From IMG/VR virus record IMGVR_UViG_2541047435_000017: DNA of 6,926 nt. One strand, given 5' to 3'. The stretch comes from a virus. Its lineage: Duplodnaviria; Heunggongvirae; Uroviricota; Caudoviricetes. This document shows, piece by piece, positions 5,965-6,550 of the stretch. A model generated the notes under the pieces. It searched no databases and was not told the origin of the DNA. It saw only the letters and a list, made by a program, of their open reading frames with translations. Position 1 is the stretch's first letter; each line of letters starts with the position of its first letter. The translations under genes and the position numbers were made by a program.

Positions 5965-5966
5965 CA

Positions 5967-5996
5967 TCCTCGTCCTTCAGGACGTGGATTCTTTTT
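5967..5996 (+). terminator. intrinsic terminator of the binding-protein gene
   Basis: Stem TCCTCGTCC / GGACGTGGA (one mismatch), loop TTCA, followed by TTCTTTTT, starting 3 nt after the stop. A second hairpin ATGCCGC-GCCA-GCGGCAT follows at 6001-6018. Confidence 0.5.
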
Positions 5997-6083
5997 CCGG
6001 ATGCCGCGCCAGCGGCATGTAGGGGCAGCTCACAAAACGGAAAAAATTGTACGCTAAGCCTCGCCAGGTGAACTGAATTCATT

Positions 6084-6107
6084 CCGATATGGGAATTCCC
6101 ATATCGG
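6084..6107. repeat. perfect 24-bp palindrome CCGATATGGGAATTCCCATATCGG
   Basis: Read directly; centred on GAATTC, about 140 bp upstream of mok. Could be a protein-binding site or a 10-bp-stem hairpin in the hok mRNA leader. Confidence refers to the presence of the palindrome, not its function. Confidence 0.9.
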
Positions 6108-6242
6108 GCGAAAACGGTTTGCTGTAACGGCAGAGTTAAGTAGGATTGCTGCGGGTGCTTGAGGCTATCTGCCTCGGGCATGAACACCAACGGCAGATAG
6201 ATAAAAGCCCCACCCGACTATAAATCGAAGTGAGGCCCCTAT

Positions 6243-6455
6243 ATGCTCGTCACATATAGATTGCCTCTTACGGACCGAAAGGTCAAGGAGAAGCAGGCTA
6301 TGAAGCAGCAAAAGGCGATGTTAATCGCCCTGATCGTCATCTGTTTAATCGTCATAGTGACGGCACTGGTAACGAGGAAAGACCTCTGCGAGGTACGAAT
6401 CCGAACCGGCCAGACGGAGGTCGCTGTCTTCACAGCTTACGAACCTGAGGAGTAA
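6243..6455 (+). CDS. mok: mok-like reading frame (in-frame upstream extension of hok, 70 codons)
   Basis: ATG 6243 opens a 70-codon frame ending at the hok stop. As I recall, mok shares its stop codon with hok in hok/sok-family loci. Confidence 0.45.
   Translation: MLVTYRLPLTDRKVKEKQAMKQQKAMLIALIVICLIVIVTALVTRKDLCEVRIRTGQTEVAVFTAYEPEE
6300..6455 (+). CDS. hok: Hok/Gef family type I toxin, 51 aa
   Basis: MKQQKAMLIALIVICLIVIVTALVTRKDLCEVRIRTGQTEVAVFTAYEPEE has the family signature (transmembrane helix, then TRKDLCE...R..G..EVA.F.AYE). It is close to HokD/RelF and HokC/Gef as I recall them. SD AAGGAG at 6285-6290. Stop TAA. Confidence 0.9.
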   Translation: MKQQKAMLIALIVICLIVIVTALVTRKDLCEVRIRTGQTEVAVFTAYEPEE

Positions 6456-6524
6456 GAGTCCAGGCGGGGGAGAAATCCCTCGCCCCCTCTGATGTGTCAG
6501 GCATCCTCAACGCACCCGCACTTA

Positions 6525-6550
6525 ACCCGCTTCGGCGGGTTTTGTTTTTT
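6525..6550 (+). terminator. intrinsic terminator at the 3' end of the hok transcript
   Basis: Perfect stem ACCCGC / GCGGGT with TTCG tetraloop, followed by TTTGTTTTTT, about 95 nt after the hok stop. Confidence 0.6.

Follow-up and report, generated by a model that had tools for sequence, protein, structure and literature searches.

A probable canonical hok/mok/sok cassette and its predicted Sok antisense gene behind paa in a lambdoid prophage

We analysed a stretch of 6,926 nucleotides from a Caudoviricetes virus (IMG/VR record IMGVR_UViG_2541047435_000017; this whole stretch is called the window hereafter), in which a small hok toxin locus follows the adhesin gene paa. Positions 6119–6550 very probably hold a complete, canonical hok/mok/sok type I toxin–antitoxin (TA) cassette with a mechanism of the plasmid R1 type; we put the probability of this reading at about 0.88. 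It comprises the toxin gene hok, the overlapping reading frame mok, an mRNA able to fold back on itself, and a predicted antisense RNA, Sok. The cassette immediately follows paa and belongs to the early-right region of a lambdoid prophage. The initial annotation, made from the letters alone, had already taken the locus for a complete mok/hok type I system whose mRNA is regulated by fold-back. This core interpretation was supported by the open reading frames (ORFs), a match to the known leader family, a covarying fold-back helix and a predicted Sok gene.

Reading frames, leader and fold-back pairing

Both hok and the upstream, in-frame mok that had been noticed initially were intact (Table 1). 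Hok matched the complete profile (positions 1–42 of 42) of the Pfam family PF01848 (HOK_GEF; E = 7.1e-22, 77 bits, cut-off 22) and also PHROG 251, ‘MokW-like host killing’ (E = 6e-32). Matches to the NCBIfam Hok-family models were below the cut-offs (44 bits vs 73). The toxin was nearly identical to that of Rac-type loci (49/51 residues) and shared 46 of its 51 residues with HokW, 40 with the product of hokC and 25 with Hok of R1.

For comparison, 25 distinct homologues were aligned, originating from E. coli, E. albertii, Kluyvera, Pseudocitrobacter, Photorhabdus and Pantoea as well as from phage and plasmid loci (hokW of an Stx2 phage, a Rac-type phage, a P1-like plasmid and an R1-type plasmid, L042). 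L042 took the place of another R1-type locus with IS150 in its leader (L038, NZ_CP141206.1), and a relBE-hok locus of Klebsiella without a leader (L041) was excluded. The alignment column of the mok ATG, located 57 nt before the hok ATG, was kept in 23 of the 25 homologues. In 14 of them, including the studied locus, hokW and hokC, mok was in frame with hok at this distance, and the in-frame arrangement is therefore a normal variant of the family. In R1, Rac-type and P1-like loci, mok was in the +1 frame (58 nt).

A covariance-model search, as the initial annotation had suggested, was made with all Rfam families and matched the entire model RF01794 (‘sok’) to the stretch preceding the toxin (Table 1). 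The match was on the hok-sense strand. As an orientation control we used K-12, where the model matched the hokC/mokC strand (L002, 502–654, minus strand) opposite the annotated sokC, with sokC lying inside the interval. The model named ‘sok’ is thus a description of the hok leader up to the hok AUG and not of Sok itself. Because it lies on the hok-sense strand, the match alone does not locate Sok, and reading it as the position of Sok was ruled out by the K-12 control.

The 5′ end of the hok mRNA was placed at approximately G6153 by the position of the −10 hexamer, the start of the Rfam model at 6153 and the alignment with R1-type leaders; the 3′ end was taken to be the intrinsic terminator. 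The −10 hexamer of hok aligned with TAGAAT or TATAAT of hokW, Rac, hokC and other loci, directly 5′ of the conserved start GGGTGCTTGAGG. Folding of the 399-nt transcript gave a minimum free energy (MFE) of −165.9 kcal/mol (z = −6.8). Both this fold and the Rfam match are far from what chance would give. In this MFE structure, the 5′ element tac paired with the 3′ element fbi (6153–6164/6517–6505) through 12 bp and a single bulge. As an isolated duplex, the pairing had an energy of −30.3 kcal/mol, compared with a mean of −16.2 (standard deviation 3.5) for shuffled 3′ segments, of which 2 out of 200 reached the same value.

The equivalent duplex formed in all 25 homologues, and in 21 of them three or fewer of 200 shuffles were as good. 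Covariation was visible at two pairs: U6156:A6514 was U:A in 18 homologues and C:G in 7, being unpaired in none, and a second pair was G:C in 15 sequences and A:U in 4. Overall, 91% of the tac–fbi alignment cells were paired, versus 47–51% when the partners were slid by 1–3 columns. It had been stated beforehand that failure of the leader to adopt the conserved 5′–3′ pairing would speak for a degenerate locus; the leader can adopt it, and the pairing covaries. The helix formed by the ucb-like partner of the 5′ hairpin was paired in 96.9% of cells of the same alignment, with three pairs changed on both sides. After in silico removal of the last 45 nt (RNA 6153–6504), positions 6153–6159 were predicted to pair with 6205–6211, which is the helix of the Rfam consensus. 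Re-pairing of the 5′ end after 3′ trimming is the switch expected from the processing of R1 hok mRNA.

The 3′ part of the transcript was likewise structured. In the alignment, the helix of the 3′ untranslated region (UTR) hairpin was paired in 93.4% of cells, and its closing pair exchanged A:U for G:C. The 3′ terminator proposed in the initial annotation was found with its stem at 6524–6541 and a T-run to 6550. The other structures that had been assigned to the hok mRNA were all present, and the hairpin at 6463–6484 lies in the transcript. The hairpin at 6001–6018 and the palindrome at 6084–6107 lie upstream of the promoter and cannot be counted among its elements, while the true fold-back partners, 6153–6164 and 6505–6517, had gone unnamed. 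The z-scores of these two hairpins, the palindrome and the terminator ranged from −2.5 to −4.5. A sub-threshold match to isrK, an Hfq-binding small RNA of Salmonella, covered the 3′ UTR hairpin, fbi and the terminator (6464–6545, plus strand; 27.3 bits vs a gathering score of 50, E = 0.008). It had only two hairpins in common with the model and was dismissed as probably due to chance.

Table 1. Positions of the cassette elements and of neighbouring features in the window
Feature	Position	Strand	Description
Predicted hok promoter	6119–6146	+	−35 TTGCTG (6119–6124), 16-nt spacer, −10 TAGGAT (6141–6146); placed by alignment
Predicted full-length hok mRNA	6153–6549	+	Approximately 397 nt: leader, mok/hok coding region, 3′ UTR, terminator
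hok mRNA leader	6153–6302	+	Rfam RF01794 (‘sok’), 103.9 bits (gathering score 59), E = 1.9e-23, full model 1–157
tac element	6153–6164	+	5′ end of hok mRNA, GGGUGCUUGAGG; predicted to pair with fbi, or with 6205–6211 after 3′ trimming
ucb-like partner of 5′ hairpin	6192–6211	+	GGCAGAUAGAUAAAAGCCCC; first helix of the Rfam consensus
mok reading frame	6243–6455	+	70 codons, in frame with hok, shares the hok stop; Shine–Dalgarno GAGG 6232–6235
hok toxin gene	6300–6455	+	51 aa, intact; Shine–Dalgarno AGGAG 6286–6290
3′ UTR hairpin of hok mRNA	6463–6484	+	9 bp, −18.3 kcal/mol; conserved
fbi element	6505–6517	+	CCUCAA-C-GCACCC; partner of tac, immediately 5′ of the terminator
hok mRNA intrinsic terminator	6524–6550	+	Stem 6524–6541 (7 bp, 5 GC), then T-run; −13.3 kcal/mol, z = −4.5
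Predicted Sok promoter	6286–6258	−	−35 TTGACC (6286–6281), 17-nt spacer, −10 CAATCT (6263–6258); +1 at G6251, seven nt after the hexamer
Predicted Sok RNA	6251–6197	−	55 nt: 9-nt 5′ tail GACGAGCAU, hairpin, 3′ end UUUUAUCUAU (U-run); homology to K-12 sokC
Perfect palindrome	6084–6107		24 bp, CCGATATGGGAATTCCCATATCGG, z = −4.5; ends 11 nt upstream of the hok −35
Hairpin	6001–6018		7-bp stem, −14.3 kcal/mol, z = −3.2; outside the hok mRNA
paa intrinsic terminator	5971–5984		
paa	5206–5964	+	AcfC-family adhesin Paa, virulence-associated moron, periplasmic solute-binding fold; Pfam SBP_bac_11, E = 5.5e-34

The Sok antisense gene and its promoter

An antisense Sok partner had been expected by the initial annotation, which could not find one by eye. 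A predicted gene was found at the place where homology would put it, on the minus strand; it has a promoter, a 5′ tail and a terminator hairpin. The position was obtained by transferring the coordinates of K-12 sokC through the alignment, from G6251 to approximately 6197. The 5′ end of sokC is the complement of nucleotide 9 of mok, and its 3′ end follows GGGGCUUUUCUCUAU. The predicted Sok folded into a single-stranded tail, a hairpin and a U-run (−21.4 kcal/mol, z = −4.7), and a tail with a terminator hairpin occupied the same position in all 25 homologues. The RNA is complementary to the mok Shine–Dalgarno sequence, the start codon and the first 9 nt of mok.

The geometry of the predicted Sok promoter matched that of R1-type loci (TTGCGC-17-TATCCT), hokW (TTGCCT-17-TAACCT) and hokC (TTGACC-17-CACTCT). 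The TTG of the −35 hexamer and A2 and T6 of the −10 hexamer were invariant in the 25 homologues. These two −10 positions are also the only ones, two out of six, at which CAATCT agrees with TATAAT, which is why the promoter was missed both by eye and by a consensus scan. The scan covered positions 5900–6700 on both strands and required at least four of six matches per hexamer; no promoter was found, and that of hok was also below the threshold. We did not take the empty scan as evidence of absence, since the homologous and experimentally supported Sok promoters of relatives would fail the same thresholds. In hokW, the −10 at the homologous position was mutated in a promoter-less sokW construct (primers YO-421/422), which unmasked the toxicity of HokW (PMC8621323).

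Three described systems were compared with the studied locus. The first was hokW-sokW of Sakai prophage 5 and Stx2-converting phages (Takada et al. 2021, PMC8621323), which, like the studied locus, belongs to a lambdoid prophage in O157:H7. Overall DNA identity was approximately 85%, and the first ~50 nt of the leader and fbi were identical (primers YO-351/YO-350). Both loci had mok in frame at 57 nt and shared the −35/17/−10 geometry of the Sok promoter. They differed in the mok start region, in the Sok −10 (TAACCT in hokW vs CAATCT) and in Sok itself: the predicted SokW has 77 nt and a long extended hairpin, whereas the studied Sok has 55 nt and a short stem of another sequence. Furthermore, the studied locus has a clear hairpin and U-run terminator right after fbi, where the hokW sequence diverges.

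The hokC (gef)/mokC/sokC locus of K-12 was more similar in its antisense gene. It has a short Sok as well (59 nt vs 55 nt) with the same layout of tail, hairpin and U-run, and it shares the mok start context CCUAUAUGCU, an in-frame mok, the leader start GGGUGCUUGAGG and the Sok promoter TTGACC-17-CA(C/A)TCT. The sequence of the Sok stem differed, as did the toxin. The K-12 copy is chromosomal, with IS186 located ~20 nt past the hokC stop, and no fbi was found there.

The hok/mok/sok (parB) system of plasmid R1 has the same order of elements, including tac paired to fbi just before the terminator and Sok antisense to the mok start region, with the Sok promoter at the homologous position, and the Rfam leader model fits. 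In R1, however, mok is not in frame, 16 extra nucleotides are inserted in the first hairpin of the leader, and the predicted Sok has 65 nt. The tac/fbi pair is GGCGCUU/AAGCGCC, as opposed to GGGUGCUUGAGG/CCUCAACGCACCC in the studied locus, and the R1 copy is located on a plasmid rather than in a prophage. Taken by its sequence, the studied locus looks like a mosaic of a prophage-type Hok with a short Sok hairpin and a mok start context resembling those of hokC.

Insertion sequences (IS) had inactivated hok loci elsewhere: IS150 cut the R1-type leader on an IncF plasmid (L038), and IS186 was situated directly downstream of K-12 hokC (L002).

Mechanism, role and alternative readings

Transcription start sites, transcript ends, RNA processing, toxicity and biological role are modelled here on the R1 paradigm. 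The weak promoter TTGCTG-16-TAGGAT would give rise to an mRNA of ~397 nt starting at approximately 6153. In the full-length RNA, tac (6153–6164) would be locked to fbi (6505–6517), rendering the molecule translationally inert. Slow trimming from the 3′ end would remove the terminator and fbi, allowing the 5′ end to re-pair with 6205–6211 and making the mok start region translatable. Translation of mok from its ATG at 6243, in frame, would then permit the production of Hok, a membrane toxin of 51 aa. The 55-nt Sok transcribed from TTGACC-17-CAATCT is predicted to pair with the mok Shine–Dalgarno sequence and start codon, by which translation would be blocked and the duplex marked for cleavage. 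With a labile Sok and a stable hok mRNA, a stop in transcription or the loss of the element would release Hok.

By analogy, the role would most likely be prophage-associated addiction and/or help with lysis upon induction, as published for hokW-sokW. The latter is an experimentally shown type I TA system in which HokW is toxic and repressed by sokW; sokW was lost on induction with mitomycin C in a RecA-dependent manner, and the release of phage Sp5 was doubled (PMC8621323).

The initial annotation had instead raised the possibility that a prophage-borne copy acts in abortive infection, which is a conjecture drawn from R1. In such a scenario, the locus would mainly be a phage-exclusion module: a lytic phage shuts off host transcription, Sok is depleted and Hok kills the cell first. 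The architecture found here, with a presumably labile Sok and a stable fold-back mRNA, is the same as that of R1 hok/sok, which on a high-copy plasmid reduced the plating efficiency of T4 by 42% and its plaque size by ~85%, according to the part of PMC8621323 that summarises this work. That published effect is modest and depends on copy number. Among the families of PADLOC-DB, Hok matched none (0 defence-system families at E ≤ 0.01), and 10.1101/2025.08.07.668861 reports hok genes as not enriched near defence systems. Moreover, the only prophage homologue that has been studied, hokW-sokW, raised the release of its own phage on induction instead of blocking phage (PMC8621323). We consider a mainly exclusion-related function unlikely.

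Several points weigh against the reading as a working R1-type cassette. Both promoters are weak by consensus and none was found by the scan. The hok −10 is TAGGAT, whereas it is TAGAAT in most relatives; the Sok −10 has only its two consensus matches. An in-frame mok also means that translation could yield an extended Hok of 70 aa, and the classical coupling model was derived from R1, whose mok is in the +1 frame. The near-identity over several hundred genomes largely reflects the clonality of O157 and not independent selection, and a biological role cannot be read from sequence.

Some of these observations would also fit a cassette that is structurally complete but functionally silent, i.e., a decaying passenger with one or both weak promoters inactive, kept through the clonality of O157 prophages. 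The failure of any σ70-like promoter to pass the scan on either strand, the A-to-G change in the hok −10 and the poor Sok −10 are consistent with this, as is the fact that records of at least 99% identity come largely from O157:H7 and close Shiga-toxin-producing relatives. On the other hand, all ORFs and RNA elements of the locus were intact and free of frameshifts, stops and IS insertions, unlike K-12 hokC with its adjacent IS186 and the R1-type copy cut by IS150. The Sok −10 has retained the invariant A2 and T6, and CACTCT of hokC is no better, yet sokC is an annotated RNA. A dead Sok promoter combined with a live hok would be lethal. A silent passenger appears quite improbable to us, and the working cassette is the reading we prefer.

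The palindrome upstream of the hok promoter led to a further idea. It could serve as an operator at which hok transcription is controlled by a regulator of the prophage or of the host; separately, the short Sok hairpin variant could render this copy orthogonal to the other hok/sok loci of the genome. The segment with the palindrome (~6062–6118) recurs 5′ of another prophage hokD copy (L043, 1501–1551), where the left arm has lost 1 nt. The segment was absent upstream of hokW, of the Rac-type and P1-like loci and of three other aligned chromosomal loci (L003, L004 and L009). An intrinsic terminator was ruled out, as neither strand has a U-run. A derivation from the immunity operators of the prophage, of which the palindrome would be a copy, was not supported either: no half-site match and no related repeat were found in 1200–1420. 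Expression of hokW depends on RecA and induction (PMC8621323), and an operator at the palindrome would tie the release of the toxin to the state of the prophage. Such an operator is possible but unsupported, and we regard the idea, together with that of an orthogonal Sok, as very unlikely.

Genomic setting, prevalence and meaning

Homology to other phage, plasmid and chromosomal hok loci was confined to approximately 6111–6550. Since this homology begins at ~6111 and the predicted start of hok lies at ~6153, the segment 5965–6110 is outside the hok transcript. It contains the paa stop codon, the paa terminator, the hairpin at 6001–6018 and the palindrome. The annotated gene order is lambdoid, with CI/Cro-like regulators, a YdaT-family protein, DnaT-like and P replication proteins, DUF1627 and the adhesin gene paa, followed 3′ of paa by hok and then DUF968, RusA, holin and lysozyme.

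The window as a whole was 99.3–99.4% identical to prophage genomes of the O157:H7 type. It aligned to O157:H7 genomes as two pieces spanning ~7307 bp, corresponding to a length difference of ~380 bp upstream of the hok locus. Just upstream of paa, the annotation of O157:H7 strain TR01 contains a fimbrial-protein pseudogene with a frameshift and an internal stop, which corresponds to approximately 4476–5045 of the window; only short, broken ORFs were found in that interval.

The 586-nt stretch 5965–6550 shared 99.5% identity with chromosomal prophage loci of E. coli O157:H7, in which the ORF is annotated as hokD, and 99.3% with ‘PPompW’ prophages and Stx2a phage records, in which it appears as ‘gef: phage maintenance protein’. 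The RefSeq name of the identical toxin gene is hokD. Compared with strain TR01, the stretch differed only at 6459, 6485 and 6544–6545. Position 6485, just 3′ of the UTR hairpin, is C in the window and A in the other 21 sequences with the 3′ UTR motif (T in three).

Matches to the studied stretch were present in 4719 of 5426 complete E. coli genomes, and in 714 genomes the match to the studied version covered 80% or more of its length. According to a 2025–26 survey, Hok occurs in almost 80% of Enterobacteriaceae genomes and is enriched four-fold in prophages, with as many as 18 copies of hok in an O157:H7 chromosome (10.1101/2025.08.07.668861). As hok is this common in E. coli genomes and enriched in prophages, an intact prophage copy is not notable, and the initial annotation overstated the case in calling it so.

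The locus is already known: hundreds of public genomes and phage records list its toxin gene under the name hokD or gef, and the family serves as a textbook model. Beyond annotation, the significance of the finding is slight. Public annotation lacks only the Sok RNA and the regulatory elements, and this prophage copy now has predicted coordinates for Sok, its promoter and tac/fbi. For the family, the strand of an RF01794 match should not be read as the Sok strand, given that it reports the hok-sense leader. Sok promoters of the family keep only A2 and T6 in the −10 hexamer, so that consensus scans and inspection by eye will routinely overlook them.

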